A stretch of DNA of 64,000 nt. Source: a virus (taxonomy: Duplodnaviria; Caudoviricetes). Positions 18,901 to 46,007 of this stretch are shown one piece after another. Location: IMG/VR virus record IMGVR_UViG_3300021387_000141, positions 26,191 through 90,190 of that record, one strand, 5' to 3'. How positions within the stretch are numbered: the stretch's first letter is position 1; each line of letters begins with the position of its first letter. Below the pieces are notes generated by a model. It did no database searches and was not told the DNA's origin. It saw nothing but the letters and a program-made list of their open reading frames with translations. The position numbers and the translations under genes are program-made.

Positions 18901-18946
18901 AGCAGACATGGATGATCTGCTCTTTATTTTTAAATAGGAGAAAAAA

Positions 18947-19165
18947 GTGGAAACTATTGTTGTAGTTTGTGCTGTTGTCGCTACTGCGACATTTGTTGTT
19001 AAAACAATCGTTTCCTGGATTAAATCCGGGAAATACGAAAAGGAAGCGGCTTTGCGCCGCAAAGAAAATGAAACGCGAAGGGCGACCTTCGCAGAAGCCA
19101 GGCTGAACCGCCTGGAAGAAAAACTGAAAGAAAAAGAAAATGTCAATGAGGACATTGATTGGTAA
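18947..19165 (+). CDS. Small membrane-anchored protein
   Basis: RBS AGGAG with GTG; hydrophobic N-terminus. Confidence 0.75.
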   Translation: METIVVVCAVVATATFVVKTIVSWIKSGKYEKEAALRRKENETRRATFAEARLNRLEEKLKEKENVNEDIDW

Positions 19166-19247
19166 ATGAAAAGAGAGTCCGCAAGGGCTCTTATTTTTTT
19201 CAATCGCTGGCTGACCACAAGTCACCAGCCACTAAAGGAGAAATCTT

Positions 19248-19409
19248 ATGTCTAAAACTTTGAAAACTGTATTGTTCGGCATTTTTGGCCTGGTCGTTGT
19301 CGGTGTGTTGGGTTATGGGATCTACAGCTACGCCACCCATACCGGATATTTTGCTCCGGCAGAAACGGAAGTAACGGAAACGGTCGAAGAAGTAGAAATC
19401 AGCGAATAA
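19248..19409 (+). CDS. 53-aa membrane peptide (not in ORF track)
   Basis: RBS AAAGGAG; MSKTLKTVLFGIFGLVVVGVLGYGIYSYATHTGYFAPAETEVTETVEEVEISE*. Confidence 0.75.
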   Translation: MSKTLKTVLFGIFGLVVVGVLGYGIYSYATHTGYFAPAETEVTETVEEVEISE

Positions 19410-19412
19410 AGA

Positions 19413-19438
19413 TCGCGATATGCGCATGGCCTCTAATG
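19413..19438 (+). promoter_or_regulatory. Phage promoter motif copy 10
   Basis: TCGCGATATGCGCATGGCCTCTAATG plus GAGGAGAG/CTCTCCTC hairpin. Confidence 0.7.
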
Positions 19439-26532: not shown

Positions 26533-26558
26533 TCGCGAAATTTACATCCCCTCTTATA
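26533..26558 (+). promoter_or_regulatory. Phage promoter motif copy 11 (RNAP operon)
   Basis: TCGCGAAATTTACATCCCCTCTTATA. Confidence 0.7.
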
Positions 26559-27121: not shown

Positions 27122-27656
27122 AGGCCGCCATGCATTTTTAGGTGCGAGCAAATACCATTGGATCAACTATGACGAAAGCAAGATCGCTGAAGCATACCGA
27201 AATGACCTGGCAAAAGAACGCGGAACCATATTGCATGATTTTGCTTCCCAGTGTATTCGGCTGAACCAGCGTCTGCCGAAATCCTCGCAGACATTGAACA
27301 TGTTTGTGAATGACGCGATCGGCTATAAGATGCGTTCCGAACAGCCGCTATATTTCAGCGAGAACTGTTTCGGGACCGCGGATGCGATCTGTTTTCGGAA
27401 GAACCTGCTGCGCATCCATGACCTGAAGACCGGTTTCACACCGGCGCATATGGAGCAGCTCTATATTTACAATGCGCTATTTTGCCTTGAGTACCATTTC
27501 GATCCGCATGAGATCGAGACCGAACTTCGTATTTATCAGTCGAATGAGGTCTTATGTGAAGAACCGGATCCGGACAATATTTCTGAAATTATGGAAAAGA
27601 TCAAAGCTTTTGACAAAATTTTACGAGATATTCAGCTGAAGGAGAGTGAAGCCTGA
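27093..27656 (+). CDS. PD-(D/E)XK nuclease-like protein
   Basis: RGTILH, FGTADAI, IHDLKTG, QLYIY. Confidence 0.75.
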   Translation: MNFNVHSNLEGRHAFLGASKYHWINYDESKIAEAYRNDLAKERGTILHDFASQCIRLNQRLPKSSQTLNMFVNDAIGYKMRSEQPLYFSENCFGTADAICFRKNLLRIHDLKTGFTPAHMEQLYIYNALFCLEYHFDPHEIETELRIYQSNEVLCEEPDPDNISEIMEKIKAFDKILRDIQLKESEA

Positions 27657-27657
27657 T

Positions 27658-30465
27658 ATGAGCAATAGTACAGCAATTAATATTTTAATTACCATGGCTA
27701 AGAAAGCCAAAAACCCGACGGTCAAGGATATTTTGCTTAGCGCAGCGGACATGAGCGATTCCGATTTTATTATGCATTACGGAACAAAGCGTCACTCCGG
27801 ACGATATCCCTGGGGTTCAGGCGACAATCCATATCAGCATGAAATCGATTTTTTGAATCGTGTCCGCAAGATGCGGAACAAGGGATATTCCGAACTGACC
27901 ATTGCAAAGAAGTGCGGATATTCTACGACCAGCGAACTGCGTTCCGCAGTCCGTTCGGCCAATAATGACATTTCTCAATATCGTATCCAGTGGGCCAACC
28001 AGTTATTAAAAGATGGCTTGACCCAGACCGAAGCCGCCCGGCGCATGGATATTCCGGAATCGACATTTCGTTCGATCATGGACAAACAGCGACAGGCCCG
28101 CGCTAATAAAGCGCAGTCGACTGCTAATTTTCTGAAATCCGTTGTTGACGAACGCGGCCCGATCGATATTGGTGCCGAAGTCAACCGTGAATTGAATATT
28201 TCCAACGAGAAACTGACACAGGCAGTCGATATTTTAAAGAAGCAGGGTTATGAAGTCCGTGTCGGTTCCATGCCTCAGGTAACGAATGAGCATGGCCAGC
28301 GGACGACCCTTAAAATTTTATGTCCTCCCGGATCTCCGAAGAACCAGGCATATTTGTATGACGATATTTCTCCGTTATTTGACTATGCCAAAGAATATTC
28401 TTCTTCCGATGGAGGCAAAACTTTCGATAAATTCGAATATCCTGCATCCATGGACTCCAAAAGAATATTTGTCCGATATTTGGAAGACGGCGGTGCGGAC
28501 CGTGACGGATTAATTGAACTCCGCCGCGGTGTTGAGGATTTATCGCTCGGCGGTTCCCGATATTCTCAAGTCCGAATATTAGTGGACGGGAATAAATATA
28601 TGAAAGGAATGGCCGTATATTCCGACAATATTCCGGATGGCTACGATGTTATTTACAACAGCCGTAAGTCCAGGGAAAAGGGCGAAGACCCGTTTAAGGA
28701 TATTAAAAAAGATGACCCGACGAACCCCTTCGGTTCCTATATTTCACCAAGGGGTCAGAGCCATTATATTGACTCGAAGACCGGAGAACGAAAATTATCT
28801 CTGATCAATAAACGTGCCGACGAAGGCGACTGGAACGACTGGTCCAAGTCCCTGCCTTCCCAATTTTTGTCCAAGCAGAACAAGAAGCTGATCGAGAATC
28901 AGTTAAATTTGTCCATTGCTGACAAGATGGCCGAGTACGAGGATATTTGCAACCTGACCAACCCGACCGTAAAGCGCCGATTATTAGAGACCTTTGCTGA
29001 GGATTGTGACGCGACTTCCGTCCATCTGGACGCGGCTGCCCTTCCCAGACAGCGCTATCAGGTTATTATTCCGCTGCCCTCCCTAAAGAAGGATCAAATT
29101 TATGCTCCGAATTTTAAGGATGGCGAGAAAGTGGCTTTGGTCCGCTACCCTCATGGCGGGATTTTTGAGATCCCCGTCCTTACCGTAAATAACAAAAATC
29201 GGGAAGGGATTTCTATATTATCTAAAAATCCGACCGACGCCGTAGGCATCAATATTGAGGCCGCCAAACAGCTGTCCGGCGCGGACTTTGACGGTGACAC
29301 GGTCATGGTGATCCCGTTATCCTCTAAGGTGCAGGTCTCTCACAGACCATATTTGGACGCCCTGAAAGGCTTCGACCCTGAAGTCGAATATCCGAAACGT
29401 GAAGGCATGAAGCCCATGCAGCGTACGGATATTGAGATGGGCAAGATCACCAATCTTATTATGGACATGACTCTTGCAGGCGCCCCTGAAGACGAGGTTG
29501 CCCGTGCCGTCAAGCACTCCATGGTTGTTATTGACGCCAAGAAGCACGAGCTTGACTGGCAGCTCTCTGAAGAACAGAACAAGATCAAGGAGCTGAAGGA
29601 CAAGTATCAGGGCCACTATGATGAGAACGGCCGCTGGCGCCATGGTTCGGGTACCATCGTGACCCGTGCCAAGAGCCCGGAACGCGTCACCAAACGCCGT
29701 GGTGAGTTCGACATCGATCCCGAGACAGGCAAGAAGATCTGGAAGGAAGCCTTCGATGCTCACTACGAAGACGCAAAGGGCAAGCCCAAGACGCGTACTC
29801 AGGAAAGCTACCGAATGCTCGAGACCGATGACCCTTACAGTCTTGTCTCCGGCATGAACACGCAGACCGAACAGCTTTACGCCCGCTATGCGGCGCAGCT
29901 GAAAGCGCTGGCCAATCAGGCACGTAAAGAGTACAAGTACAACACGCCGAACCTGGAATACAGCCCTTCGGCTCACAAAGTGTACAAGAAGGAAGTCGAT
30001 TCCCTCACTGAAAAGCTGCGCCAAAGCCGCTTGAACGCTCCCCGTGAACGTGAAGCGCAGCGCCGCGCCAATGTGCAGCTGGAACGGCTTTTTAAAGAAA
30101 ATCCGGAACTCCGGGACGATAAAAAACAAAGAGGCAAATACGCTCAGCAATATTTGACCGCTGCCCGTGTGGCAGTAGGCGCTCAGCGCTATAAGATTGA
30201 GATCACGCCGGCCGAATGGACCGCGATCCAGGCCGGAGCAATATCTGACAGCCTGCTGAAGCAAATATTAGACGCAACGGACACCAATACGGTGCGCGAA
30301 TACGCGACTCCGCGCAATTCAGACACCATGTCCAATGCTAAAAAAGCCAGATTATTTTCTCTTCGTCGTTCCGGTTACAGTAATGCGGAGATCGCAGACG
30401 CGCTCAATGTGCCTGTCTCGACGATCCTTTATTACGTACGCCAGGAAAAAGAAGGCAAACTCTAG
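27658..30465 (+). CDS. Single-subunit double-psi-barrel (YonO-like) DNA-dependent RNA polymerase
   Basis: Catalytic GADFDGD; RYPHGG; MGKITN, HSMVVIDAKKH; three HTH-like segments. Confidence 0.85.
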   Translation: MSNSTAINILITMAKKAKNPTVKDILLSAADMSDSDFIMHYGTKRHSGRYPWGSGDNPYQHEIDFLNRVRKMRNKGYSELTIAKKCGYSTTSELRSAVRSANNDISQYRIQWANQLLKDGLTQTEAARRMDIPESTFRSIMDKQRQARANKAQSTANFLKSVVDERGPIDIGAEVNRELNISNEKLTQAVDILKKQGYEVRVGSMPQVTNEHGQRTTLKILCPPGSPKNQAYLYDDISPLFDYAKEYSSSDGGKTFDKFEYPASMDSKRIFVRYLEDGGADRDGLIELRRGVEDLSLGGSRYSQVRILVDGNKYMKGMAVYSDNIPDGYDVIYNSRKSREKGEDPFKDIKKDDPTNPFGSYISPRGQSHYIDSKTGERKLSLINKRADEGDWNDWSKSLPSQFLSKQNKKLIENQLNLSIADKMAEYEDICNLTNPTVKRRLLETFAEDCDATSVHLDAAALPRQRYQVIIPLPSLKKDQIYAPNFKDGEKVALVRYPHGGIFEIPVLTVNNKNREGISILSKNPTDAVGINIEAAKQLSGADFDGDTVMVIPLSSKVQVSHRPYLDALKGFDPEVEYPKREGMKPMQRTDIEMGKITNLIMDMTLAGAPEDEVARAVKHSMVVIDAKKHELDWQLSEEQNKIKELKDKYQGHYDENGRWRHGSGTIVTRAKSPERVTKRRGEFDIDPETGKKIWKEAFDAHYEDAKGKPKTRTQESYRMLETDDPYSLVSGMNTQTEQLYARYAAQLKALANQARKEYKYNTPNLEYSPSAHKVYKKEVDSLTEKLRQSRLNAPREREAQRRANVQLERLFKENPELRDDKKQRGKYAQQYLTAARVAVGAQRYKIEITPAEWTAIQAGAISDSLLKQILDATDTNTVREYATPRNSDTMSNAKKARLFSLRRSGYSNAEIADALNVPVSTILYYVRQEKEGKL

Positions 30466-30479
30466 AAAGGAGCTCAATC

Positions 30480-30797
30480 ATGGAGAAAGATCAGACCTGT
30501 TACCTGACAACGTTCGACAATCCGTTCAATCCTGACACACAGTTCGATCTATGGTTGGACTTCGACATCGATCACGGCTATTACAGCTGCGCTTACCTGG
30601 ATCGGATCGCCAAGATCAGTCCCGCAATGAGCGAGATCGAGAAGGAACTGGAGATTGAACGCGCGATTGACGAGATCATCAAATATGACTTCCGAAATAT
30701 ATACACAAAAATATACGTAAAAAAACAAAATGACACCCCCGTTGTTGATGACGACGAGGATTTTGACAAATTAATTGACCGCAGCCATTACGCATAA
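30480..30797 (+). CDS. Acidic protein downstream of RNAP
   Basis: RBS GAAAGGAG; YLTTFDNPFNP..QFDLW. Confidence 0.8.
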   Translation: MEKDQTCYLTTFDNPFNPDTQFDLWLDFDIDHGYYSCAYLDRIAKISPAMSEIEKELEIERAIDEIIKYDFRNIYTKIYVKKQNDTPVVDDDEDFDKLIDRSHYA

Positions 30798-30799
30798 AA

Positions 30800-30880
30800 T
30801 AGACACACCCCGGGGGGATAGGCGAAAATCCCACCCCCTCCCCCAATCGCGGGGGTCTCCAAAAATTCTCCGGGGGAGTT
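30800..30880. other. G/C-run cluster, putative cos/packaging site
   Basis: CCCCGGGGGG, CCCCCTCCCCC, CGCGGGGG, CTCCGGGGG in the gap upstream of small terminase and HNH. Confidence 0.45.
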
Positions 30881-31161
30881 TTTTAGGACGCGTTTTATAT
30901 TTTAGCGTGGTGTTAATAACTTTAGTAAAAAATTTATATTTGTAATAGCCCTTTGAAGAGTGATTCAAAGGGCTTTGTTTAATGAAAGAAAAGACAAATG
31001 GATATTTTAGAAGGATTTAGAAAGTACTTTCAGGGGCTCAAGGTTTCCATTTGTTTCCTTTCGTTCCTAACATTATTCGTCTTATGATATGTGCTTGGTT
31101 TTTTCGTTGCTTTGAGCCTCTGAAAGTACTTTCTAACAAAGGAAAAGAATGAGGTAAGCGT

Positions 31162-31506
31162 ATGAGAAAGAAAGAGAAAGACCTTGAAACTCCGGTAAAG
31201 CGAAAACAAAGGCCGGGAATGTCGGTCGAAGCTCGTGAAAATCAGCTCATTTCGCTTGCCGTTGATCTTGCTGAAAAACAATTATTGGAAGGAACAGCTT
31301 CGTCACAAGTAATTACACATTATTTGAAGCTTGGTTCTACAAAAGAACGATTAGAAAAAGAAATTTTAAAACAACAAAAAGAATTAATTGAAGCGAAGAC
31401 TGAAGCTTTGCATTCATCGAAACGAATAGAAGAATTATATTCAAACGCATTGAATGCTATGCGGAATTATCGCGGTGACATTAATTCTGATGAAGATGAA
31501 GACTAA
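31162..31506 (+). CDS. Probable terminase small subunit
   Basis: First gene of the packaging module, helical; positional call. Confidence 0.5.
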   Translation: MRKKEKDLETPVKRKQRPGMSVEARENQLISLAVDLAEKQLLEGTASSQVITHYLKLGSTKERLEKEILKQQKELIEAKTEALHSSKRIEELYSNALNAMRNYRGDINSDEDED

Positions 31507-31929
31507 ATGGATACTCTGCGAACATATACAGAATTAATAAAACGTTCAACTTTTATGGATCGTTTTAATTATCTAAAACTGGATGGAAAAATCGGTGAAG
31601 ATACTTTTGGATTCGATCGATATTTGAATCAAATATTATATCGTTCTCCAGAATGGCGAAAAGTTCGGGACATTGTAATTGTCAGAGATAATGGAAATGA
31701 TTTAGGATTGGAAGGTTTTCAGATCGGTAAAAAGAATCTGATTGTCCATCATATGAATCCGATCACGTATCATGATATTGTCCAAAAGAATGATGAGATC
31801 ATGAACCCTGAATTTTTAATATGTGTATCCCGACTGACGCATCAAGCGATCCATTATGGTAATTTGGATCTTTTGCCAAAAGAACCAATAGAAAGATCAT
31901 TGAATGATACCTGCCCCTGGCGGCATTAA
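31507..31929 (+). CDS. HNH endonuclease (packaging-associated)
   Basis: RDNGNDLG, IVHHMNP, THQAIH. Confidence 0.85.
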   Translation: MDTLRTYTELIKRSTFMDRFNYLKLDGKIGEDTFGFDRYLNQILYRSPEWRKVRDIVIVRDNGNDLGLEGFQIGKKNLIVHHMNPITYHDIVQKNDEIMNPEFLICVSRLTHQAIHYGNLDLLPKEPIERSLNDTCPWRH

Positions 31930-31951
31930 ATATTATTAGGAGAAAATCAAA

Positions 31952-32170
31952 ATGAAAACCAGTAATCCGCTTTATGCGGTTGTTGTAAATTGCTTATGGG
32001 CTCCGGTTCATGAAAAACCGAATAATCAATCAGATGTTATTTGCGAGCTGGCGTGTTTAAGCGAAGTTGAAGTTCTTGAAGAAAAGTCAATTGACGTTTT
32101 CTATTATATTTGTGCGCCTTCGGGAGATGAGGGATACTGTTTAAAAGAGTATCTGGTTTTAAGAAAATAA
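31952..32170 (+). CDS. SH3b-like small protein
   Basis: PVHEKPNNQSDVI..L..V....GDEGY pattern. Confidence 0.55.
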   Translation: MKTSNPLYAVVVNCLWAPVHEKPNNQSDVICELACLSEVEVLEEKSIDVFYYICAPSGDEGYCLKEYLVLRK

Positions 32171-32199
32171 TTAAATAATTCAGCGATAGGAGAAACATT

Positions 32200-32544
32200 A
32201 TGGATGAAAGTATATTGAACTCGATAAAAAAATTGCTCGGTATCGCTGAATTTGATACCAGTTTTGATCAGGATATTATTATTCACATAAATACAATATT
32301 AGTAATTTTATGGCAGATGGGGGTGGGTCCTACATCCCCTCTTCGAATTTCGGGTCCTGAGGAAAAATGGAGTGATTTTGCGGAAGATTTATCAAAAATT
32401 GAGATGGTGAAGTCTTATATTCACCTAAGAGTGGCACAATTGTTTGATCCGACAACCAGTACAGCGGTAGATGAAAGTCGAAATAATTTAATTAAAGAAC
32501 TGGAATGGCGGTTATATGTAAGCGGAGATAGTGATATTTTATAA
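32200..32544 (+). CDS. Head-tail connector (gp6/gp15-like)
   Basis: SILNSIKKLLG..FDQDIIIHIN..VKSYIHLRV..FDP..ELEWRL. Confidence 0.75.
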   Translation: MDESILNSIKKLLGIAEFDTSFDQDIIIHINTILVILWQMGVGPTSPLRISGPEEKWSDFAEDLSKIEMVKSYIHLRVAQLFDPTTSTAVDESRNNLIKELEWRLYVSGDSDIL

Positions 32545-32859
32545 TTTAATTGCAATTGCAGATAAAAAAAGTACTGACAGCACTATTATTATAAGCAAAG
32601 CGATAATTATTTTAAATTCAAAAGAATCTTTATTTGATCGGTATTTAAAATATTTACTTATTTGTTTCGTTTTTTCTTTTTCTTTTTTTAAATAATTTAA
32701 AGATTGTTTAGAGCGTTCTTTTTCTGATAAAAGATGCTCCAAATTGTTTATATCTAAAAATAACTTAGAGCCACAATATTGGCAATATGCTTGTAAATGA
32801 TCTAAATCCAAAACTAAATCAGCACCGCATTTTTTACATTTCATTTCGATAGTTTTCAT
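32539..32859 (-). CDS. Antisense moron: zinc ribbon, coiled coil, C-terminal TM helix
   Basis: CKKCG/CQYCG; AT-rich; hydrophobic C-terminus. Confidence 0.7.
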   Translation of the reverse strand: MKTIEMKCKKCGADLVLDLDHLQAYCQYCGSKLFLDINNLEHLLSEKERSKQSLNYLKKEKEKTKQISKYFKYRSNKDSFEFKIIIALLIIIVLSVLFLSAIAIKL

Positions 32860-32892
32860 ATTATCAATTTTACTACAAAATAAGGAGGTCCC

Positions 32893-33456
32893 ATGGATTT
32901 TGACGAATTAAAACATTGGGGAATCTTTGGTATGAAATGGGGCGTCCGTCGTTATCAAAATGAAGACGGCTCTTTGACAGATGAAGGGCGGGAACATTAT
33001 AATGTCGGCCCTGCTAGAACCAAAGGCTATGAACGAGCAGAAGGCAATTTTAATAGAAATCGTTCTGATAATTATAACATTTCTAAAAAAAATAAGAGCT
33101 CTATATTTGATTCTAAAAACAAAAAACAAAAATTGCCGGAATTAATGTCAGATGATGAATTGTTTAAGATGACAAAAAGATTTAAAAGCCAGGCAAATTT
33201 TTATAATGCGCAAAATGACTATATAAAAAGTAAAGCATATAATGCTGAACTCACCAAAAAGAAAAGCAAATTAGGACAATTTTTAAATAAAATATTAGTC
33301 CAACCCGCAGAAAATGTATTATCAAGAAGTGTTGAATTTGGATTATCTGTAAGTACTGCGGCCTTTCTGGATTCTATAGATTCAAAATATGCAGATGATT
33401 ATACAAAATTTGTTCTAAAAAGTGGTAATAAAAATAAAAAGAAAGATGATGATTAA
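32893..33456 (+). CDS. His-motif protein 1 (putative internal head protein)
   Basis: ELKHWGIFGMKWGVRRYQNEDGSLT; Lys-rich. Confidence 0.75.
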   Translation: MDFDELKHWGIFGMKWGVRRYQNEDGSLTDEGREHYNVGPARTKGYERAEGNFNRNRSDNYNISKKNKSSIFDSKNKKQKLPELMSDDELFKMTKRFKSQANFYNAQNDYIKSKAYNAELTKKKSKLGQFLNKILVQPAENVLSRSVEFGLSVSTAAFLDSIDSKYADDYTKFVLKSGNKNKKKDDD

Positions 33457-33461
33457 TTATT

Positions 33462-35192
33462 ATGCTTTCAAATACCGCTACACCACGTTATTACGGCGAA
33501 TTTCGTCAGAAAGTTTTGCGGGGTGAAATACCGGTTCCAAAAACCATAGAAATGGAAATGAATCGGATCGATGATCTGATTCGAAACCGTGGAATTTATT
33601 ATGATGATCAAGCCGTAGAAGGATTTATTCGTTATTGTGAAAATGAATTGACATTAACGGATGGATCTGATCTGAAATTATTAGACACTTTTAAACTTTG
33701 GGCAGAACAAATTTTTGGTTGGTATTATTTCGAAGAGCATTCTATTTACGATCCCAAAAAGAAAAGATATGTAAACCGCCGAATAAAGAAACGCCTTGTA
33801 AATAAGCAATATTTAATCATTGCCCGTTCGGCTGCTAAATCTTTATATGCATCCTCAATCCAAAGTTATTTTTTAACGGTTGATACGACAACTACGCACC
33901 AAATTACGACCGCTCCAACGATGAAACAGGCAGAAGAAGTTCTTTCGCCGATTCGTACTGCGATCAGCAGATCCAGAGGGCCTTTATTTTCATTTTTAAC
34001 AGAAGGCTCTATTCAAAATACGACCGGATCCAAAATGGACCGGGTGAAATTGGCGGCAACAAAAAAGGGTGTCGAGAATTTTTTGACCGGATCCCTACTT
34101 GAAGTTCGTCCGATGAGCATTTCGAAACTTCAAGGACTTCGCTGTAAAATCGCGACGGTTGATGAATGGCTTTCCGGTGATATTCGTGAGGATGTGATCG
34201 GTGCAATCGAACAGGGTGCTGCAAAAGTAGATGATTATTTGATCCTGGCAGTATCTTCAGAAGGAACTGTCCGAAATGGTGCCGGTGATACGATCAAGAT
34301 GGAATTGATGGATATTCTCAAAGGAGAATATATTAATCCGCATGTTTCCATTTGGTATTATAAGCTTGACTCAATCGATGAAGTAAATCAACCGGAAATG
34401 TGGCCGAAAGCGAACCCGAATCTTGGCTATACCGTTAGTTACGAAACTTATCAGTTGGATAAAGAACGGGCTGAAAAAGCTCCGGCAGCCAGAAATGATA
34501 TTTTGGCAAAACGTTTTGGTATTCCGATGGAAGGATATACCTATTATTTTACTTATGAAGAAACACTTCCGCATCGTAAACGAGATTATTGGAATATGCC
34601 CTGCGCTATGGGTTGCGATCTGTCTCAGGGGGATGATTTTTGCGCTTTTACATTTTTATTCCCCTTACGCGGAGGAGCTTTTGGCATTAAAACCAGAAAT
34701 TATATTTCTTCTACAACTTTAAATAAACTTCCTGCAGCTATGCGTATTAAATACGATAGCTTTATGAATGAAGGGTCTTTGATCGTATTAAATGGTCCGG
34801 TCTTAAATATGATGGAAGTTTATGAAGACCTGGATGCGCATATTAATCGCTGTGGCTATGATATTCGCTGTGTTGGCTACGATCCCTATAATGCCCGGGA
34901 TTTTATTGAACGCTGGGCATCTGAAAATGGTCCTTATGGAATTGAGAAAGTAAAACAGGGCTCACGGACAGAATCTGTACCTTTGGGAGAATTAAAGAAA
35001 CTTTCGGAAGAGCGAATGCTTTTGTTTGATGAAGACCTGATGACTTTTACTATGGGTAATTGTATTACGCTTGAAGATTCCAATGGTAATCGTAAATTAT
35101 ATAAGAAACGCTATGACCAGAAAATCGATGCTGTTGCGGCTATGATGGATGCTTATATAGCATTTAAACTGAATCGAGAATCTTTTGAATAA
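33462..35192 (+). CDS. terL: Terminase large subunit
   Basis: ARSAAKS Walker A variant, TVDE, nuclease GCDLSQGDD and KIDAVAAMMD. Confidence 0.92.
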   Translation: MLSNTATPRYYGEFRQKVLRGEIPVPKTIEMEMNRIDDLIRNRGIYYDDQAVEGFIRYCENELTLTDGSDLKLLDTFKLWAEQIFGWYYFEEHSIYDPKKKRYVNRRIKKRLVNKQYLIIARSAAKSLYASSIQSYFLTVDTTTTHQITTAPTMKQAEEVLSPIRTAISRSRGPLFSFLTEGSIQNTTGSKMDRVKLAATKKGVENFLTGSLLEVRPMSISKLQGLRCKIATVDEWLSGDIREDVIGAIEQGAAKVDDYLILAVSSEGTVRNGAGDTIKMELMDILKGEYINPHVSIWYYKLDSIDEVNQPEMWPKANPNLGYTVSYETYQLDKERAEKAPAARNDILAKRFGIPMEGYTYYFTYEETLPHRKRDYWNMPCAMGCDLSQGDDFCAFTFLFPLRGGAFGIKTRNYISSTTLNKLPAAMRIKYDSFMNEGSLIVLNGPVLNMMEVYEDLDAHINRCGYDIRCVGYDPYNARDFIERWASENGPYGIEKVKQGSRTESVPLGELKKLSEERMLLFDEDLMTFTMGNCITLEDSNGNRKLYKKRYDQKIDAVAAMMDAYIAFKLNRESFE

Positions 35193-35201
35193 GGAGTTTT
35201 T

Positions 35202-35843
35202 ATGAATGACTATGAATTGAAACATTATAGAACTCCGGGTTCAAAAAACGGAGTTCGCAAGTATCAAAATTATGATGGGACTTTGACGCCATTGGGTTAT
35301 ATACATTATGGTATAGAAAAAAACGGAAAAAGCTACAGCGGAAATAAAACATTAGAGAAAAAAAGCGGATGGAATACTGTTAAAACTATAAATAAATATA
35401 ACCCAAGCCGTTTGCTTAGAGAACCTATTGATATAGCTATAAATATGCATGATGGTTCTAATATAAGAAAACGTAAAAATGTTACGGGCGGAGTATCTAT
35501 TTCTAAAAAAGAAAATGATCAAACTGTACAAAATATACAGGAATCTTATAAACCCGTAGAGCAGCAATTAGAGAAAGCTGCACAAGAACATTATGACGGT
35601 GTTTATTTGTCAGATTTAATGAGTAATGCAAACCGTCAAATATTGGCAGCCGGTGATCAATTTGTTCATAGTCCTATCGTTAAAGAAAAAATGATACGAG
35701 GTGGTTTTACTGAGTCATTGATTAGAGTAATTCAATATTTATCTAAAAATCCGGACGACTATTCTAAAAATAGATCCATTATAAAATCTCCGGCCTATTG
35801 GATGAACTTTGGTGGTAGACCAAGAATTAATCAAACACGATAA
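35202..35843 (+). CDS. His-motif protein 2
   Basis: ELKHYRTPGSKNGVRKYQNYDGTLT. Confidence 0.75.
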   Translation: MNDYELKHYRTPGSKNGVRKYQNYDGTLTPLGYIHYGIEKNGKSYSGNKTLEKKSGWNTVKTINKYNPSRLLREPIDIAINMHDGSNIRKRKNVTGGVSISKKENDQTVQNIQESYKPVEQQLEKAAQEHYDGVYLSDLMSNANRQILAAGDQFVHSPIVKEKMIRGGFTESLIRVIQYLSKNPDDYSKNRSIIKSPAYWMNFGGRPRINQTR

Positions 35844-35853
35844 AGGAGGTTAT

Positions 35854-36768
35854 ATGCTGGATTTAGTACATACAGATATTTATCCCAATGATGAATTGAA
35901 ACATTGGGGTGTTTTAGGAATGAAATGGGGCATCCGGCGTTTTCAAAATCCAGATGGATCATTAACTCCTGAAGGAAGAGAAAGATATGGAGTTAAATCT
36001 GCTCATGAAGCCAGAAAATTATCTTATGCTAAAGAATATTTAGTATTAAAACAAAAGAAAAATAGAACAGAAAAAGAAAATGAACGACTTAAAATCCTTG
36101 AAAAAGGAAAAAAACATTTTGAAAGAAGTATTAATGATGCTGATTATTGGGAAAAAATGAAAGATAATTATAGCTTAGATGAATATGAAGACGCTTCACA
36201 GGCTTATCAACAATATTTTAATTCTACTAATTATGGTAAAGGCATGAATGAAGCTAAAGCTTTAATGAGCATTCCTACGACTATAATTGGGGCTGCAATA
36301 GATGCCGGTGCTATTTATGCACAATTTAATCTCGGTTCGCCGGTCGCTTTTTATGGTATTCCAACTGCTTTAGGACTTGGAATAGGTGCTAATATTGGTG
36401 AATCAAAATATGAAGAAAAGCATTTAGAAGAATTAAAGAAAGAATTAAATAGCAATAATACTAAAAATAAAAATTATGAGTTTGAAAAGCATATTGTTAA
36501 AAATCCTAAAAAAGAATTAAATGACTATCACAATAGGCTTGAAAAACGGAGAAAAAATTCAAATTCATCTTATTATCGTGATGCAACAGCTGTTAATTCA
36601 GCTGCTAAAAAGGCAATTGAAATAATAAATGAAGATAAAGCGTATTCAATGGTATTTTCAAACCCTAATTATTATTTAAATAACGGCCAATGGACATTTG
36701 AAGGTAAAACATATGGATCTGTAGATGGCCTTGTGAACGCTTTAATAAAAAGTGATGTTATAAAATAA
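35854..36768 (+). CDS. His-motif protein 3
   Basis: RBS AAGGAGG; ELKHWGVLGMKWGIRRFQNPDGSLT; central hydrophobic Gly-rich hairpin. Confidence 0.75.
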   Translation: MLDLVHTDIYPNDELKHWGVLGMKWGIRRFQNPDGSLTPEGRERYGVKSAHEARKLSYAKEYLVLKQKKNRTEKENERLKILEKGKKHFERSINDADYWEKMKDNYSLDEYEDASQAYQQYFNSTNYGKGMNEAKALMSIPTTIIGAAIDAGAIYAQFNLGSPVAFYGIPTALGLGIGANIGESKYEEKHLEELKKELNSNNTKNKNYEFEKHIVKNPKKELNDYHNRLEKRRKNSNSSYYRDATAVNSAAKKAIEIINEDKAYSMVFSNPNYYLNNGQWTFEGKTYGSVDGLVNALIKSDVIK

Positions 36769-36784
36769 ATCGGAGGAAATTCAT

Positions 36785-37609
36785 ATGTATAGTAATTATA
36801 TGTATAGTAATGCACCTGCATCCAGCCGCAGAGGTGGTGGATCCTGGGTTTATGTAAATGGAGAACTTTATCATTTTGGTATTAAAGGTATGAAATGGGG
36901 TGAACATCTTCCATTTACTGATTATTGGAAAGTTGGCAAGAATGCTTATGGCAATTATATGAAAAAAAACACAACAGTAGGATTTAATAAAGATGCTAAC
37001 GGTGTAATGACAACTTATAATAAAAAGCCTAGCAAGCTTAAAGCTTTTGGATATGCAGTCAATGCAGCTGGTACTTATGCTCGCAATCGAGCTCGTAATG
37101 ATATTCGTCGTGCTAAAGACGCCGCTATAAATAAACGTAATGCTATTAACCAGAACATTCGATATAAAACCACAGACCGATATTATAGTAATTTAAATAA
37201 TTTTTCAGAGGGCATGAAAAATATGCCGACGTCACATTTGGAAGAACGAATGGGGAAATTGCTAAATAGAGGCAATGATTATATTGAAGCTCTCAAACAG
37301 AATCCAAATAGCGGCATTGCAGTATTGAATTTGGCTATTAAAAATGCACAATTTAATGTACTGAATGGCATTAATAGTTTTCTTAAAAAAACAGGACTTG
37401 ATAAAAAAGTAGATAAATTCTTAAGCAAATTCTTGGGTGAATCCAATGCTGTTAAAAGTGCTCGCTTAGCTGAAAAATCTGCTAATTTACCAAAGATTGG
37501 ACCTACCAACACTCGGGGCTATGATCGTGCCGAAGCTGCTTCGCCAAGTTATACATTTGACACAAGAGTTAAACGAGCTGCTAAAAAACCTAAAGGTGTT
37601 TTAGTATAA
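36785..37609 (+). CDS. His-motif protein 4
   Basis: ELYHFGIKGMKWG; very basic. Confidence 0.75.
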   Translation: MYSNYMYSNAPASSRRGGGSWVYVNGELYHFGIKGMKWGEHLPFTDYWKVGKNAYGNYMKKNTTVGFNKDANGVMTTYNKKPSKLKAFGYAVNAAGTYARNRARNDIRRAKDAAINKRNAINQNIRYKTTDRYYSNLNNFSEGMKNMPTSHLEERMGKLLNRGNDYIEALKQNPNSGIAVLNLAIKNAQFNVLNGINSFLKKTGLDKKVDKFLSKFLGESNAVKSARLAEKSANLPKIGPTNTRGYDRAEAASPSYTFDTRVKRAAKKPKGVLV

Positions 37610-37632
37610 AAGATTAGGAAGAATAATTCAAA

Positions 37633-38901
37633 ATGGAGCTAACATTCACAGCCAGGCTGAAACAGGCCTGGAATGCTTTTTTAAATAACAAGGATCCGAC
37701 AATACCGGAGTACCGCGATATTGGAACATCATATGCAATTCGTCCAGATCGGCCCCGGCTGACTCCGGGGAATGAGCGCTCCATTATTACTTCGGTATTT
37801 AATCGGATTGCACTGGATGTGGCTTCGGTAAGAATCCGCCACATTCGTCAGGATGAAGAAGAACGCTATATTGAAACGATCGATTCCGGATTGAATAACT
37901 GCCTTTCACTGGAAGCAAATGTTGACCAGACCGGCAGGGCATTTATTCAGGATATTGTAATGTCCATGCTGGATGAAGGTGTTGTTGCAATTGTCCCGGT
38001 AGATACAACAATTGATCCGAGAAAAAACAATTCCTATGATATTCGTACCATGCGAACCGGAAAAATCATTGAATGGTATCCGCAGCATGTAAAAGTTCGT
38101 GTATATAATGACCGTCTTGGGCGTAAAGAAGAACTGATTCTTTCCAAGACGGTTGTTGGAATTGTTGAAAATCCGTTGTATGCGGTTATTAATGAACGAA
38201 ATTCAACCCTTCAGCGGTTGATCCGAAAACTGAACATTCTGGATGTTATTGATGAACAAAGCGGATCCGGAAAACTGGATCTGATTATTTCACTTCCTTA
38301 TACTGTAAAAACAGAAGCGCGGAAAGAGCAGGCCGAAAAGCGCCGGAAAGATATTGAAAAACAGCTTTCTGGTTCAAAATACGGCATTGCTTATACGGAT
38401 GGAACTGAAAAAATTACACAGTTAAATCGCACTGTAGAAAATAATCTGATGGGGCAGATCGAATACTTGACGAGTATGCTATACAGCCAGTTAGGGATAA
38501 ATCAGGCCGTATTGGATGGTTCTGCAGATCCGATGTCGCTGCAAAATTATAATAATCGTACCATCGAACCGATCCTTTCTGCAATTACCGATGAAATGAA
38601 GCGAAAGTTTTTAACAAAGACCGCCCGTACGCAAGGGCAGTCCATCAAATTCTTTGTTGATCCTTTCCGGTACGTGACCGTTACAGATTTAGCAAACAGC
38701 GCAGATGCGCTTGCCAGAAACGGTATTGTTGCGCCGAATGAATTCCGTCAGATCATTGGAATGAAGCCTTCGGAAGATCCAGATGCGGATATGCTGTACA
38801 ACCGGAATATGCCGCAGGAAGATCGTGAAATACCGGAAGAATATAGTGATGAATACGAAGAAATTCCGGAGCAGGAAGTTTCGGAAGAATCTTATCAATA
38901 A
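37633..38901 (+). CDS. Portal protein
   Basis: RIALDVAS, GKLDLII, TIEPI, NEFR..IG; position before protease-capsid. Confidence 0.9.
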   Translation: MELTFTARLKQAWNAFLNNKDPTIPEYRDIGTSYAIRPDRPRLTPGNERSIITSVFNRIALDVASVRIRHIRQDEEERYIETIDSGLNNCLSLEANVDQTGRAFIQDIVMSMLDEGVVAIVPVDTTIDPRKNNSYDIRTMRTGKIIEWYPQHVKVRVYNDRLGRKEELILSKTVVGIVENPLYAVINERNSTLQRLIRKLNILDVIDEQSGSGKLDLIISLPYTVKTEARKEQAEKRRKDIEKQLSGSKYGIAYTDGTEKITQLNRTVENNLMGQIEYLTSMLYSQLGINQAVLDGSADPMSLQNYNNRTIEPILSAITDEMKRKFLTKTARTQGQSIKFFVDPFRYVTVTDLANSADALARNGIVAPNEFRQIIGMKPSEDPDADMLYNRNMPQEDREIPEEYSDEYEEIPEQEVSEESYQ

Positions 38902-38951
38902 TTTTTTTAATTTCAAAATAGAACAAAAATTTTAAATACGAGGTGACGAGT

Positions 38952-41183
38952 ATGTCAGAAACCTATGATTTTTCAGGGTGGGCTACTCGGAACAATCTTC
39001 GTTGTTCAGATGGCCGCGTGATTATGCGCGATGCCTTCCGTGATAACGACGGAATGACCGTTCCGCTGGTATGGAACCACCAGCATAATGACCCGGATAA
39101 TGTTCTTGGGCATGCATTGCTTGAGAACCGTGATCAGGGTGTTTATGCCTATTGCAAATTTAATGATACCGAATCCGGAAGAAACGCCAAAATGCTGGTT
39201 GAGCATGGCGATGTTTCCGCGCTTTCGATTTACGCCAATAAGTTGAAACAGCAGGGATCCAATGTTCTTCATGGAGCGATCCGTGAAGTTTCTTTGGTCC
39301 TTGCCGGGGCCAATCCCGGTGCTTTTATTGATACCGTGATGGCTCACAATGATGGTGAAGATGAAGAAGCCATTATTTATAGTGGCGAAGAAATCGATTT
39401 TGCTCATGCCGACAAATCTTCAAATGATAGCGATGAAGAAGAAACGGTCGGTGATGTTTTTAATACCCTAAACGAAAAACAGAAAGCTGTTGTTTACGCA
39501 ATGATCGGGGAAGCTCTTCGTGATGGCGCTACTTCTCAGGAAGACGATGACGAAGAAGAGGATGAACCCGAGGAAGAAAACGTAAAGCACAGTGACGACG
39601 AAGGAGAAGAAGATATGGCTGGAGACGCTACTGTCCAGGATGTTCTGGACTCAATGAATGAAGAACAAAAAGCAGTAATGTATGCATTAATCGGTCAGGC
39701 TTTGAGCGATGCCGAGGGAGATGATGAAGTGAAGCATAATGTTTTTGATAATGATTATGACTATGGTTATGATGAATATGATGATGTTCTTTCCCATAGC
39801 GATATGGAAGAGATCTTTGAAGACGCCCGCCGTAGCGGAAGCCTGAAAGATGCTTTCCTGGCTCATGGTATTGACAATATTGATTATCTGTTCCCGGATG
39901 ATCAGAACGCCACAAACGAACCTATTTTCATTAAACGTGAAGATAGCTGGGTTCAGAAAGTTATGGGAGGTGTTCATCACACCCCGTTCAGCCGTGTGAA
40001 GTCTTTGTTTGCTGATATTACTGCAGATGAAGCCCGTGCCCGGGGTTATATGAAGGGGAACCTGAAGAAGGATGAAGTCTTCAGTCTGCTCCGCCGTTCT
40101 ACCGGCCCGACAACTGTTTATAAGAAACAGAAGATCGATCGTGATGATCAGATTGATATTACTGATTTTAATGTGGTTGCCTGGATGAAGAAAGAAATGC
40201 GCCAGATGCTGGACGAGGAACTTGCCCGTGCTTACCTGATCGGTGACGGCCGTATTTCCTCTTCCGATGACAAGATCAATGAAGACTGCATCCGCCCGAT
40301 CTGGAAAGACGCTGATCTTTTCACCGTGAAATACCCGATCGCGATCCCTGCGAACGCCACGGATGATCAGAAGGCGAAAGCTTTCATTAAGGGCTGTGTC
40401 AAGTCCCGAAAGCTGTATAAGGGTTCCGGTAATCCGACAATGTTTACCACTGAAGATATGCTGACTGCTATGCTGATGCTGGAAGACCTGAATGGCCGTT
40501 TCATCTATGAATCTGTTGACAAACTCGCTCAGGTCCTGCGCTGCAAGGAAATCGTTACCGTTCCGGTTATGGAAGGTAAGTCCCGCTATGATAAGTCCAA
40601 TAATGAACTGATCCTTGCCGGTATTTACGTTAACCTGGAAGACTACAATGTTGGTGCTGATCAGGGCGGTTCTGTCAATATGTTCGACGATTTCGATATT
40701 GACTTCAACGCTCAGAAGTACCTGATCGAAACCCGCTGCTCCGGTGCGATGACCGTTCCTTTCGGCGCCGTTGCGCTTGAATTCTATGTCGGCAATGGCC
40801 TGACCCTGTCCGTTGAAGGCGCTGATCCTGAAGATGAATATCTCGGTAAGGCTGTTTCCGATCTTCAGTCCAACATAAATGTAAATGATGATTATATTTC
40901 CGGTACCCTGCATTATGTTGACAACTATACCGGTTTCAGTGATGTAGTCCGTGAACAGTCCGGTAACTATATTGCCTTGTCATTCGAAGCCGAAACCGGT
41001 TCCACGACCACGGTTGAACTTGTCGGCAGCAAGGCGGGTCCTGTCACCCTTGATTCTGATATGACCTGGGTCGGCCGTATTACGAATCCGGAAACTCAGA
41101 CAATTCGTGTGATCACGACCAAGAACGGCGCGAAGGTCACTAAGGTCTTTGGCTTGAATCGTCTGGTTTGCGAACGGGAATAA
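38952..41183 (+). CDS. Prohead protease - acidic scaffold - major capsid - Ig-like fusion
   Basis: Protease PLVWNH, LSIYA, EVSLVLAGANPGA; acidic linker; HK97-like capsid segment (DEELARAYLIGDGR); beta-rich C-terminus. Confidence 0.85.
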   Translation: MSETYDFSGWATRNNLRCSDGRVIMRDAFRDNDGMTVPLVWNHQHNDPDNVLGHALLENRDQGVYAYCKFNDTESGRNAKMLVEHGDVSALSIYANKLKQQGSNVLHGAIREVSLVLAGANPGAFIDTVMAHNDGEDEEAIIYSGEEIDFAHADKSSNDSDEEETVGDVFNTLNEKQKAVVYAMIGEALRDGATSQEDDDEEEDEPEEENVKHSDDEGEEDMAGDATVQDVLDSMNEEQKAVMYALIGQALSDAEGDDEVKHNVFDNDYDYGYDEYDDVLSHSDMEEIFEDARRSGSLKDAFLAHGIDNIDYLFPDDQNATNEPIFIKREDSWVQKVMGGVHHTPFSRVKSLFADITADEARARGYMKGNLKKDEVFSLLRRSTGPTTVYKKQKIDRDDQIDITDFNVVAWMKKEMRQMLDEELARAYLIGDGRISSSDDKINEDCIRPIWKDADLFTVKYPIAIPANATDDQKAKAFIKGCVKSRKLYKGSGNPTMFTTEDMLTAMLMLEDLNGRFIYESVDKLAQVLRCKEIVTVPVMEGKSRYDKSNNELILAGIYVNLEDYNVGADQGGSVNMFDDFDIDFNAQKYLIETRCSGAMTVPFGAVALEFYVGNGLTLSVEGADPEDEYLGKAVSDLQSNINVNDDYISGTLHYVDNYTGFSDVVREQSGNYIALSFEAETGSTTTVELVGSKAGPVTLDSDMTWVGRITNPETQTIRVITTKNGAKVTKVFGLNRLVCERE

Positions 41184-45508: not shown

Positions 45509-45883
45509 TTATTTTTTAATCAAAATAACCATAAAAATAAACATAATAACGCAGATAAAAATAGTAAGTAGGGCCCATACAAATTCTTGTTTAAAATCAG
45601 TTTCGTCTTTTTCTTTATCCTTTTCTTGCATCTGCTGTTTATTTTTTTTAATTTGGATTTGATTCTGTTTTTCTATAAATTTTTTATATTCGTTTTTAGC
45701 CCGTTTGGTATTTGCTTCTAAATCCTGAATATTTGAATCCCAAAACAGCATGGAATTGCAATGTGGGCAACCGAAGCCATAACTATAATCAGGATGATGA
45801 ATTTCTACCGGTTCAAAACAATAAGGGCAGGGTCTCCAGACAATATATTTATTTCCTTGTTTATTATTAGAAAAAATTGTCAT
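45509..45883 (-). CDS. Antisense moron: zinc ribbon, coiled coil, C-terminal TM helix
   Basis: CPYC/CPHC; AT-rich; start moved to ATG 45883. Confidence 0.7.
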   Translation of the reverse strand: MTIFSNNKQGNKYIVWRPCPYCFEPVEIHHPDYSYGFGCPHCNSMLFWDSNIQDLEANTKRAKNEYKKFIEKQNQIQIKKNKQQMQEKDKEKDETDFKQEFVWALLTIFICVIMFIFMVILIKK

Positions 45884-45917
45884 CCTGTATGAAACCTTAA
45901 TTCTTAAATTTTTAAAT

Positions 45918-45926
45918 ATTATAACA
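45918..45926 (-). promoter_or_regulatory. Extended -10 promoter for the moron
   Basis: TGTTATAAT on the minus strand, about 35 nt before the ATG. Confidence 0.6.
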
Positions 45927-46007
45927 TCAAAACTTAAATATCGGTGCATATAGAAGTCTGGTCATTCAGATTAGCACCTTTTTATTTTTTAATATGGAGG
46001 CATATCT

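Follow-up and report, generated by a model that had tools for sequence, protein, structure and literature searches.

A His-centred N-terminal tag on an RNA polymerase and unrelated head-module proteins as a candidate head-cargo signal in a siphophage lineage

Why should a phage RNA polymerase and four head-module proteins with unrelated bodies begin with the same short peptide, and why do sites of a similar kind recur in the spacer of the capsid polyprotein? We addressed this question in a 64,000-nucleotide stretch of IMG/VR record IMGVR_UViG_3300021387_000141 (the window), the source of which was a gut phage. The presence of the tag on four small proteins and the polymerase, together with Leu-x-His in the capsid spacer, suggests that it probably marks proteins that are loaded into the head, trimmed by the head protease, and delivered to the next host. 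From sequences and structure models we lean towards reading the tag as the address-and-cut signal of a head-cargo system in one large lineage of Gram-positive siphophages. This lineage comprises 1706, ReqiPepy6, FP_oengus, and the actinophage AM/AU/BI/DJ group, in which protease, scaffold-like spacer, and capsid form one chain.

The shared tag and its carriers

The original prediction described five proteins with unrelated bodies that share an N-terminal signature, and this description held. Four head-module proteins (starts 32893, 35202, 35854, and 36785) and a two-barrel RNA polymerase (27646-30465) had in common a leader with [L/I]-x-His at its end and a conserved module after it. All five signatures were present on the + strand where they had been placed, and BLASTP among the tagged bodies showed no relatedness. 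The tag His codons were at 27775 in the polymerase (F-I-M-H, then Y-G-T-K), at 32914, 35223, and 35902 (E-L-K-H), and at 36872 (E-L-Y-H). An RxYQNxDG(S/T)LT-like continuation, claimed for three of the proteins, was confirmed in 32893, 35202, and 35854 as R-x-[YF]-Q-N-x-D-G-[ST]-L-T after the tag. The GMKWG motif had been tentatively assigned to DUF7211, and the Pfam HMM agreed: PF23847 (DUF7211; gathering cutoff 27 bits) gave 34.9 bits for 32893 and 30.6 bits for 35854, and 36785 was slightly under the cutoff with 26.4 bits. PF23847 reported neither the degenerate copy in 35202 (G-S-K-N-G for G-M-K-W-G) nor the polymerase variant. A whole-genome DUF7211 scan returned the identical three loci (32893, 35854, and 36785).

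The first tagged cargo candidate (32893..33456, +; 187 aa, pI 9.5), recognized by DUF7211, motif scan, and composition, lies directly upstream of the gene for the terminase large subunit (TerL; 33462..35192, +; Pfam TerL_nuclease and TerL_ATPase, phrog_9), which anchors the cargo gene slots, and sits at the genome position of phage 1706 orf7. The motif scan placed its E-L-K-H at 32905-32916 and its module at 32917-32979, both on the + strand. A role as terminase small subunit was considered unlikely for this protein on two grounds: the protein bears the tag, and next to an HNH gene there is another small basic gene (31162-31506), itself without a Pfam match. The second candidate (35202..35843, +; 213 aa, pI 9.7) has its E-L-K-H at 35214-35225 and matched phrog_32444 (E = 5e-5) but no Pfam family. 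In the third candidate (35854..36768, +; 304 aa, pI 8.9) E-L-K-H is at 35893-35904; ATG 35854 is the more likely start of this 319-aa ORF, in agreement with the start given originally. This protein showed a Gly-zipper-like hydrophobic stretch, with the hydrophobic maximum at residue 136, and its only atlas matches were weak look-alikes, DUF7211 and Gly-zipper clusters. The fourth candidate (36785..37609, +; 274 aa, pI 10.1) has a 29-residue leader before E-L-Y-H (36863-36874) and precedes the portal gene (37633..38901, +; Pfam Phage_portal, phrog_12). Pfam detected no domain besides the tag on the tagged bodies. The giant tape measure gene of this phage holds a DUF2268 Zn-protease-like motif.

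As predicted, the tagged small proteins were basic (pI 8.9-10.1) and their genes AT-rich, with a GC of 0.30-0.35 compared with 0.39-0.50 in the TerL, portal, capsid, and polymerase genes. Among the other His residues in the long ORFs of the window, 30% have L/I/V/M/F at position -2 and 18% have L/I/M. The chance of the observed -2 residues was about 2e-4 for five of five tag His and about 7e-4 for six of six capsid-linker His, p-values that overstate independence because the tag copies are related by descent. A chance motif as the origin of the tag was excluded by the motif scans and this -2 background check.

The tag followed the lineage closely. In 50,697 phage records, the capsid fusion matched 244 and the polymerase 250, with nearly identical counts per host genus. 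A 46-residue tag query retrieved 148 records, whose named hosts were only genera with both the polymerase and the fused capsid gene. Among cultured phages, one set of host genera accounted for tag, polymerase, and fused capsid gene alike (1706, ReqiPepy6, FP_oengus, and the Arthrobacter, Gordonia, and Streptomyces clusters). Many members of the lineage are available in culture and harmless, namely Lactococcus phage 1706 and the SEA-PHAGES isolates from Arthrobacter, Gordonia, and Streptomyces; Arthrobacter Circum and Mudcat, Gordonia Kenosha, Rhodococcus ReqiPepy6, and Faecalibacterium FP_oengus are cultured members as well. At least one tag was present in 64 of the 66 IMG/VR loci holding TerL, portal, and capsid. 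The 167 tag positions in IMG/VR loci fell mostly between TerL and portal (87) or upstream of TerL (79), with one between portal and capsid and none downstream; in ReqiPepy6 the tag starts all seven genes that separate TerL and portal. His was found at -5 in 175 of 178 occurrences of G-x-[KRHQ]-W-G and Leu at -2 in 147 of 154 unique tag copies, and the tag lay at a median of 11 residues from the first Met.

A survey of what is fused to the tag had been proposed. The tag was widespread, with 50,827 cluster representatives carrying it in the profile search; a longer-protein search for bodies yielded mostly tag-only matches plus one GNAT and one CW_7 body. Two to five tags, polyprotein-like and with a median spacing of 210 residues, were carried by 160 of 184 inspected proteins (the 150 best-scoring representatives and the matches of the longer-protein search), a list biased towards multi-tag proteins because scores add up over copies. 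Internal copies kept Leu at -2 in 246 of 260 cases. These results support the view that the GMKWG motif (DUF7211) is a genuine portable tag of the whole lineage, borne by head-module proteins that are unrelated and evolve fast and, in a variant form, by the RNA polymerase.

The polymerase variant and the capsid-linker sites

The largest candidate cargo is an RNA polymerase (27646..30465, +) of the single-chain two-barrel type (YonO/QDE-1-like), with an HTH domain at either terminus; it matched phrog_4291 with E = 0 over residues 34-932. Its catalytic loop D-F-D-G-D (residues 543-547) was invariant in the aligned relatives. The best Foldseek matches of its AF2 model were QDE-1 (E = 1e-6), RDR2, and the RNA polymerases P32 gp64 and P23-45 gp96 of phages. 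With the DxDGD loop in its sequence and double-psi barrels in its model, the gene product is assigned to the two-barrel single-chain RNA polymerases of the YonO, QDE-1, and crAss gp66 kind.

The polymerase tag (27766..27822, +) consists of the F-I-M-H site and a Y-G-T-K-R-H-S-G-R-Y-P-W-G-S-G module. H40, Y41, G42, R45, S47-Y50, and G53-G55 were invariant in 17 aligned relatives (about 50% identity), and the block was also present in phage 1706, Arthrobacter Mudcat, and Curtobacterium Pippin15. Residues 31-56 were modelled as coil with pLDDT < 50; such invariance in a segment modelled as disordered is what one would expect of a short linear motif that a partner recognizes. The polymerase-type module was sought on other proteins and found only on polymerases. 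A 76%-identical relative has a homologous N-terminal leader, so the start is probably 27646 or 27658 and the leader about 40 residues long; Met36 was dropped as a start because the leader upstream of it is conserved in the relative. The gene had been placed behind its own promoter, and a promoter-like repeated element, located at 13.3-19.4 kb and at 26533, was found upstream of the polymerase operon.

The protease-capsid fusion ORF spans 38943-41183, with ATG 38952 a more likely start than 38943. Its prohead serine protease domain (S78, HK97 type; 38952..39338, +) matched PF04586 with 24.9 bits against a 21-bit cutoff, and residues 1-129 were modelled as beta-rich with pLDDT 71-89. In the scaffold-like linker (39339..39866, +) six hydrophobic-x-His sites had been claimed, and all six were found (His codons 39345, 39405, 39588, 39735, 39795, and 39864). 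The stretch that separates protease and capsid domain contains these six His and no others, and their -2 residues are M, F, V, V, L, and L. In the structure model, four of the six lay in segments of pLDDT < 50 between helical modules and two at the edges of the last helical module. H132, H152, and H305 were invariant in 33 relatives, and H262 and H282 were conserved in at least 90%. Across 65 unique fusions, 358 of 367 linker His had L/I/V/M/F at -2, and the consensus was [DEN]-x-x-[LMI]-[KAS]-H followed by [GSAN]-[DE].

The HK97-fold major capsid domain (39867..40793, +) has the predicted mature N-terminus G-I-D-N, and residues 303-614 aligned to the GTA and HK97 capsids with VIA-align Z of 15-16. 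By the alignment ranges, HK97 Ser104 corresponds to about model residue 304 and residue 160 of T5 to about 297, both close to His305; judged from the model, the last linker His lies about where the HK97 and T5 capsid proteins are cut. An extra beta-rich C-terminal domain (40884..41156, +; phrog_31690 at residues 641-744, beta strands 649-734) was absent from most relatives, which end at about residue 612. The fusion matched phrog_3270 (E = 1e-220), and its relatives carry the annotation 'major capsid and protease fusion protein'. Sequence and model together thus identify an S78 prohead protease, a spacer, and an HK97-fold capsid in one chain. A PDB sequence search with the fusion returned no relative, so its mature N-terminus is not readable from a close structure.

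The cargo sites had been described as similar to the capsid sites, and this was true of the non-prime side. With a matrix made from the six residues before the capsid-linker His and a background of 2,431 other His, the cargo His scored far above the background (AUC 0.93), and the difference persisted with position -2 omitted. In the window ranking by this matrix, the five tag His took places 7, 8, 9, 22, and 25 of 319. In statistical terms, the non-prime side of the tag, [D/E/N]..[L/I]-x-H, is similar to the His sites in the linker of the capsid polyprotein. The prime side differed: cargo has Y/H/F/W-G after the His, compared with G/S/A/N-[D/E] in the capsid, and cargo scored below background with the prime-side matrix. 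The best-conserved part of the tag lies past the proposed cut and would remain on the mature protein. Further capsid-type His sites were not enriched in the cargo bodies (2 of 382 His, with a control set that included some capsid fusions).

A proposed head-cargo system and its alternatives

Presence of the tagged proteins and the polymerase in the virion is suggested indirectly, by analogy with the depositors' labels for the 1706 homologues. In GenBank EU081845, phage 1706 orf7 and orf75 are both named 'structural protein'. The former carries two tags and occupies the slot before TerL, as in the window; the latter is the polymerase homologue, with an identical tag core. The label is not specific, as it also covers the untagged small proteins orf62 and orf71. 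Other papers citing phage 1706 gave no proteomic detail, and a literature search for the tag gave no relevant paper.

In the address-and-cut system that we favour, the procapsid would, during assembly, capture proteins with a short variable leader, [D/E/N]-x-x-[L/I]-x-His, and a flexible G-M-K-W-G module, and the RNA polymerase would be captured likewise through its S-G-R-Y-P-W-G-S-G variant. The S78-type protease domain would cut the spacer at Leu-x-His sites and free the capsid domain at G-I-D-N, and it would also trim the cargo behind sites of this kind. The cargo would then begin with Y-G-T-K (polymerase), W-G-I-F (32893), Y-R-T-P (35202), W-G-V-L (35854), and F-G-I-K (36785). When the next cell is infected, the trimmed polymerase and the small basic, partly membrane-active proteins would exit with the DNA; the delivered polymerase could then start phage transcription, and the variable proteins could act on the host. 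The cut behind His, tag-dependent loading, and injection are steps that we infer, and the overall interpretation of the original prediction is partly supported. We know of no HK97-type protease with cleavage after His. A broader form of the claim, to which we give a little short of an even chance, is that this His-centred peptide of 25 residues serves a very large lineage of Gram-positive phages, with about 50,000 protein clusters, as a general 'load and cut' code. In this form, a capsid-fused HK97-type protease would cut after His, a specificity not known from any phage head protease, and the code would load the polymerase and polymorphic effectors, sometimes as polyproteins, for injection.

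The tag might instead be a docking peptide only, which stays uncut and, in the manner of encapsulin peptides, loads cargo by binding to part of the procapsid, be it the capsid interior, the scaffold-like spacer, or the portal; the invariant His would then be part of the binding motif, and its likeness to the capsid-linker sites a partial convergence. A conserved block running about 20 residues beyond the His, a prime side unlike the capsid sites, and the modelled disorder of the tag would suit such a peptide, and the gene positions and 1706 virion labels fit it equally well. We nevertheless consider this unlikely, because the acidic-x-x-Leu-x-His is kept in internal copies too and its match to the linker sites goes well beyond the Leu, because tags repeated at about 210-residue spacing resemble unit boundaries, and because it is not obvious what a variable leader would do ahead of a docking peptide.

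A role outside the virion, in which the tag is a shared assembly-chaperone, membrane-targeting, or turnover signal and the proteins and polymerase act only in the producing cell, appears quite improbable. It would agree with the hydrophobic or Gly-zipper segments of several bodies, with the 'structural' label on untagged 1706 proteins, and with YonO of SPbeta, a distant relative that works as an intracellular late polymerase (PMC5467207). However, the tagged genes are strictly limited to the TerL/portal slots, the tag occurs only in host genera whose phages have the fused protease-capsid gene, and both tagged classes are labelled structural in 1706. Cutting by a host protease, another phage protease, or a self-cleaving module, with loading independent of it, is very improbable: the tape measure gene offers its DUF2268 motif and the cargo/capsid prime-side difference would suit two enzymes, but cargo and capsid sites agree on the non-prime side, no protease other than the S78 domain is conserved throughout the lineage, and nothing favours self-cleavage of a disordered 20-residue peptide.

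If the address-and-cut reading is true, the tag would be the first loading and processing code for internal proteins beyond the T4 and phiKZ groups, and P1 His a new protease specificity in the HK97-type family. It would account for how phages of this lineage could use a polymerase of their own to start transcription. Head-module genes that now lack annotation would, in their tens of thousands, become candidate injected effectors and a pool for anti-defence functions, and the tag itself would be a short, portable means of packing foreign proteins into phage heads.

Comparison with known systems

The window tags share the 25-position motif of PF23847 (DUF7211), with two proteins above its cutoff, and differ from it in the polymerase variant and the degenerate copy, which the model misses. 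The Pfam entry gives no function and, as far as visible, no link to capsid-linker His sites.

N4 vRNAP and gp66 of the crAss-like phage phi14:2 are phage-encoded polymerases that are carried in the particle and start transcription, and the crAss enzyme is a two-barrel, RdRP-like single chain. The present enzyme differs in its size of about 100 kDa and in its HTH domains at both ends, and its virion presence is suggested by one depositor's label on a homologue. We know of no loading tag described for the N4 or crAss polymerases. With YonO (PMC5467207) and the 1706-type branch (PMC2919709; bioRxiv 10.1101/842583) it shares the DxDGD two-barrel catalytic core, and earlier work already counted the 1706-type protein among the YonO-like proteins and took it as a signature of the lineage. 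Keyword searches of passages in these three sources found no mention of an N-terminal tag or of virion loading.

Encapsulin cargo-loading peptides and the HK97 delta domain with its protease resemble the present system in the HK97-fold shell, in short disordered peptides by which cargo is directed inside, and in a spacer that an S78 protease digests. Encapsulin peptides, however, are usually C-terminal and uncut, and the HK97 protease is a separate protein. The known cut that frees the mature HK97 capsid protein is after Lys. The MuF-fused polymorphic toxins of temperate phages place variable effector bodies on a conserved head-associated handle, and their genes, as here, are neighbours of those for portal and terminase; in place of a folded MuF domain, the present handle is a peptide of 25 residues.

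In T4, a capsid-targeting sequence on IPI-III and Alt is removed by the prohead protease gp21 at [L/I]-x-Glu. Both systems have a short N-terminal signal on unrelated, fast-evolving proteins, a hydrophobic-x-P1 site common to cargo and scaffold/capsid precursors (here alike on the non-prime side, with cleavage predicted), and cargo delivered with the DNA (here as proposed). In contrast to T4, the candidate P1 residue is His and not Glu, and the protease is of the S78 family (HK97 type, PF04586), fused to the capsid protein, and not S77. The T4 targeting sequence is removed, whereas the conserved portion of the present tag follows the proposed cut site and would stay on the protein; the tag also occurs internally and in tandem. 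With an S78 protease and a candidate P1 His in place of S77 and Glu, the proposed system would be an analogue of the T4-type system and not a member of it.

Tag anatomy and gene order

The N-terminal signature claimed for five window proteins was observed in all of them, as an [L/I]-x-His near each N-terminus followed by an aromatic residue and then, except in the 35202 copy, by Gly. The module behind it was G-M-K-W-G in three proteins, a degenerate G-S-K-N-G in one, and an expanded S-G-R-Y-P-W-G-S-G in the RNA polymerase. Its assignment to DUF7211 (PF23847) held in part, with two proteins above the Pfam cutoff and a third just below it. The cargo bodies proved to be without similarity to one another and basic, and their genes AT-rich (GC 0.30-0.35 vs 0.39-0.50 in neighbours), as the original prediction had stated.

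The window covers the last 64 kb of an IMG/VR virus record that is 90,190 bp long and carries terminal repeats, and the plus strand holds nearly all genes of the window. The head module contained a connector gene (32200-32544), followed on the plus strand by a tagged gene (32893-33456), TerL (33462-35192), three tagged genes (35202-35843, 35854-36768, and 36785-37609), the portal gene (37633-38901), and the protease-spacer-capsid fusion (38943/38952-41183). The polymerase gene (27646-30465, plus strand) preceded the first tagged gene by about 2.4 kb. It followed a nuclease-like gene, whose counterpart in related phages is annotated as a Cas4-family exonuclease. A minus-strand ORF (32539-32859; 106 aa, zinc-ribbon N-terminus, C-terminal hydrophobic helix) sits between the connector gene and the first tagged gene and may be a moron; this ORF and ORF 45509-45949 were the only likely minus-strand genes noticed in or near the structural module.

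Two large ORFs were also observed. ORF 46008-61682 (5,224 codons) matched the tape-measure family TMP_3 near its start. At about residue 1010 it showed a Zn-protease-like motif (DUF2268), and at about 48.8-49.9 kb a 105-nt unit (35 residues) was present in nine tandem copies. In length it exceeds the tape measure genes of phages 1706, FP_oengus, and ReqiPepy6 two- to threefold. At 113-4132, a 1,339-aa ORF matched DUF5906 and D5-like helicases; in phage 1706 its counterpart may be GP55, the 'four-in-one' replicase (PMC12205980).

Across 80 IMG/VR loci and four cultured phages, 175 of 178 G-x-[KRHQ]-W-G strings had a His five residues upstream, all on the capsid strand; the three others were in tape measure genes. 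The 154 unique tag copies showed Leu at position -2 in 147 cases and Ile or Met in the remaining seven, with E, N/D, and N/S/D at positions -3 to -5 and Y/H/F/W at +1. The median distance from first Met to tag was 11 residues, and eight copies were internal. Tagged genes were located in the TerL-portal interval (87), upstream of TerL (79), and in the portal-capsid interval (1), with none downstream across the surveyed loci. At least one tag was present in 64 of 66 complete loci, and in ReqiPepy6 seven tagged genes occupied the entire TerL-portal gap.

One ReqiPepy6 protein (L005, 564-2159) carried an internal tag after a domain with two H-x-T motifs, which we take to be 2H-phosphoesterase-like; 'RNA ligase' is the annotation of a related protein in a Streptomyces phage. 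Acetyltransferase bodies occurred on other tagged proteins, and Streptomyces phages CricKo and Bilo also showed enzyme-bodied tagged proteins. Both enzyme types are of a sort known from anti-defence proteins. A second leader pattern, M-W-x-Y-[NRKL], was observed about 10 residues ahead of Leu-x-His at cargo N-termini (loci L015, L022, L032, L042, L050, L052, L053, L060, L065, L079, and L085). Because it recurs on many unrelated cargo proteins, the leader comes in recurrent types.

Putative cargo sites and capsid spacer sites

In the proposed cargo system, tagged proteins would be loaded into the head and trimmed after His by the HK97-type protease fused to the capsid protein. The six similar capsid-linker sites of the original prediction were confirmed: the spacer contains six His, and the residue at -2 is hydrophobic in every case. 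The chance of the pattern was <1e-3 for the tag His and for the spacer His against the window's own background. L/I/V/M/F stood at -2 for 358 of the 367 spacer His from 65 unique fusions, and the site consensus was [DEN]-x-x-[LMI]-[KAS]-His then [GSAN]-[DE]. A 33-sequence alignment showed three invariant site His and two conserved at ≥90%, with the rest of the spacer poorly conserved.

The AF2 model of the fusion (mean pLDDT 68) showed, in order, the protease domain (1-129), a strand, three helical modules, and the capsid domain. Four spacer His were in joints with pLDDT <50, and the other two bordered the last helical module. VIA-align gave the capsid model Z scores of 15-16 against GTA and HK97 capsids. 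The mature residues, which we take to be Ser104 in HK97 and 160 in T5, fell, by the aligned ranges, at about model residues 304 and 297; both adjoin His305 (codon 39864), so the mature capsid N-terminus is likely G-I-D-N in this model. A C-terminal beta-rich extra domain (40884-41156, phrog_31690), absent from most relatives, may be a built-in decoration domain.

A position matrix from the six residues before the spacer His scored cargo His far above 2,431 other His of the same loci (AUC 0.93), although such site-likeness statistics overstate independence because tag copies are related by descent. The gap persisted when position -2 was left out and only His preceded by L/I/M at -2 served as controls. 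Among the 319 His ranked in the window, those of the five tags came 7, 8, 9, 22, and 25. Cargo and capsid sites thus appear to be partly the same kind of site. Their prime sides differ, with an aromatic residue or His then Gly in cargo, and a small then an acidic residue in the capsid. Processing of the cargo by another enzyme is one main rival here, to be weighed against the non-prime likeness.

Another main rival is that the tag is a docking peptide that stays uncut. A profile built from 52 tag sequences matched 50,827 cluster representatives at E ≤1e-3 and 17,035 at E ≤1e-10, out of 1.84 billion. We inspected 184 proteins, comprising the 150 best-scoring of the 50,827 representatives and the matches of a separate search. 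Two to five tags were present in 160 of the 184, although the top of the list is biased to multi-copy proteins because scores add up. Median spacing was 210 residues, close to the length of one cargo protein. Of 260 internal tags, 246 had Leu at -2, and the acidic residues ahead of it were retained. The multi-tag proteins (P0044-P0049 and about 155 others; 300-1,570 aa) carried 2-5 complete tags, each with its own acidic-x-Leu-x-His. By sequence they look like natural polyproteins in which the tag links cargo units, an arrangement that would be predicted for a tag marking a cleavage site. Pfam assigned no domain to most tagged bodies; a single GNAT body and a single CW_7 body were noted.

The tagged polymerase and its lineage

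All 25 unique IMG/VR polymerase N-termini showed acidic-acidic-x-[L/I]-x-His, then Y-G...S-G-R-Y-x-[W/Y]-G-S-G as in the window; one further IMG/VR polymerase locus had a divergent N-terminus. The same pattern was observed in 1706, FP_oengus, Mudcat, and Pippin15. In an alignment of sequences about 50% identical, no other invariant block was as long as the tag segment. In the polymerase model (mean pLDDT 78), residues 31-56, which contain Leu-x-His and the entire module, were coil and one of four segments with pLDDT <50. The tag behaves like a short linear motif, invariant yet modelled as disordered. The remaining model showed a two-barrel polymerase fold, with QDE-1, RDR2, phage P32 gp64, and P23-45 gp96 as best matches.

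A 25-nt element, T-C-G-C-R (7 nt) C-A (3 nt) C-C-T-N-T-A-A-T, occurred in 10 copies, all on the plus strand, vs about one expected. Nine lie at 13283-19437 and one at 26533-26557, upstream of the operon whose last gene encodes the RNA polymerase. Several copies were preceded by a terminator-like hairpin with a T run, and most were directly followed by a stable hairpin of varying stem sequence, then a ribosome-binding site. These elements are candidate phage promoters with a 5' stem-loop.

Of 50,697 phage records, 244 were matched by the capsid fusion and 250 by the polymerase. Broken down by host genus (Arthrobacter, Gordonia, Streptomyces, Lactococcus, Curtobacterium, Rhodococcus, Microbacterium, and Faecalibacterium), the two tallies were nearly the same. 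A 46-residue tag query matched 148 records, whose named hosts were only these genera. The tag is a lineage trait, seen in the same genera as the capsid fusion and the polymerase. This lineage is the Actinobacteria/Firmicutes phage group for which bioRxiv 10.1101/842583 gave the polymerase as signature; the 1706 protein was already listed as YonO-like in PMC2919709. The searched passages of these two sources make no mention of the tag, and a full-text literature search for the tag's names found nothing.

Virion presence and known systems

The third main rival gives the tag a role outside the virion. In the GenBank record of Lactococcus phage 1706 (EU081845), orf7 and orf75 are both labelled 'structural protein'. 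The orf7 product, in the slot before TerL, has two tags at about residues 38 and 188 and more Leu-x-His sites with a small residue next; orf75 encodes the homologue of the polymerase, and its Y-G-T-K-R-H-S-G-R-Y-P-W-G-S-G core is identical. These labels are suggestive of virion presence for a tagged protein and the polymerase, but are not specific, because orf62 and orf71, two small untagged proteins, carry them too.

For the proposed cargo system, we consider it probable that tagged proteins are present in the particle. Their trimming after His by the head protease is slightly favoured, whereas we rate it as slightly less likely than not that loading needs the tag and nothing else. The most economical explanation would be a cargo system that parallels the T4 capsid-targeting sequence with gp21 but relies on a capsid-fused HK97-type protease, which would cut after His. 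The window system falls outside the T4 family, because its protease family (HK97-type) and P1 residue (putatively His) differ; by analogy, it may work like the T4 system.
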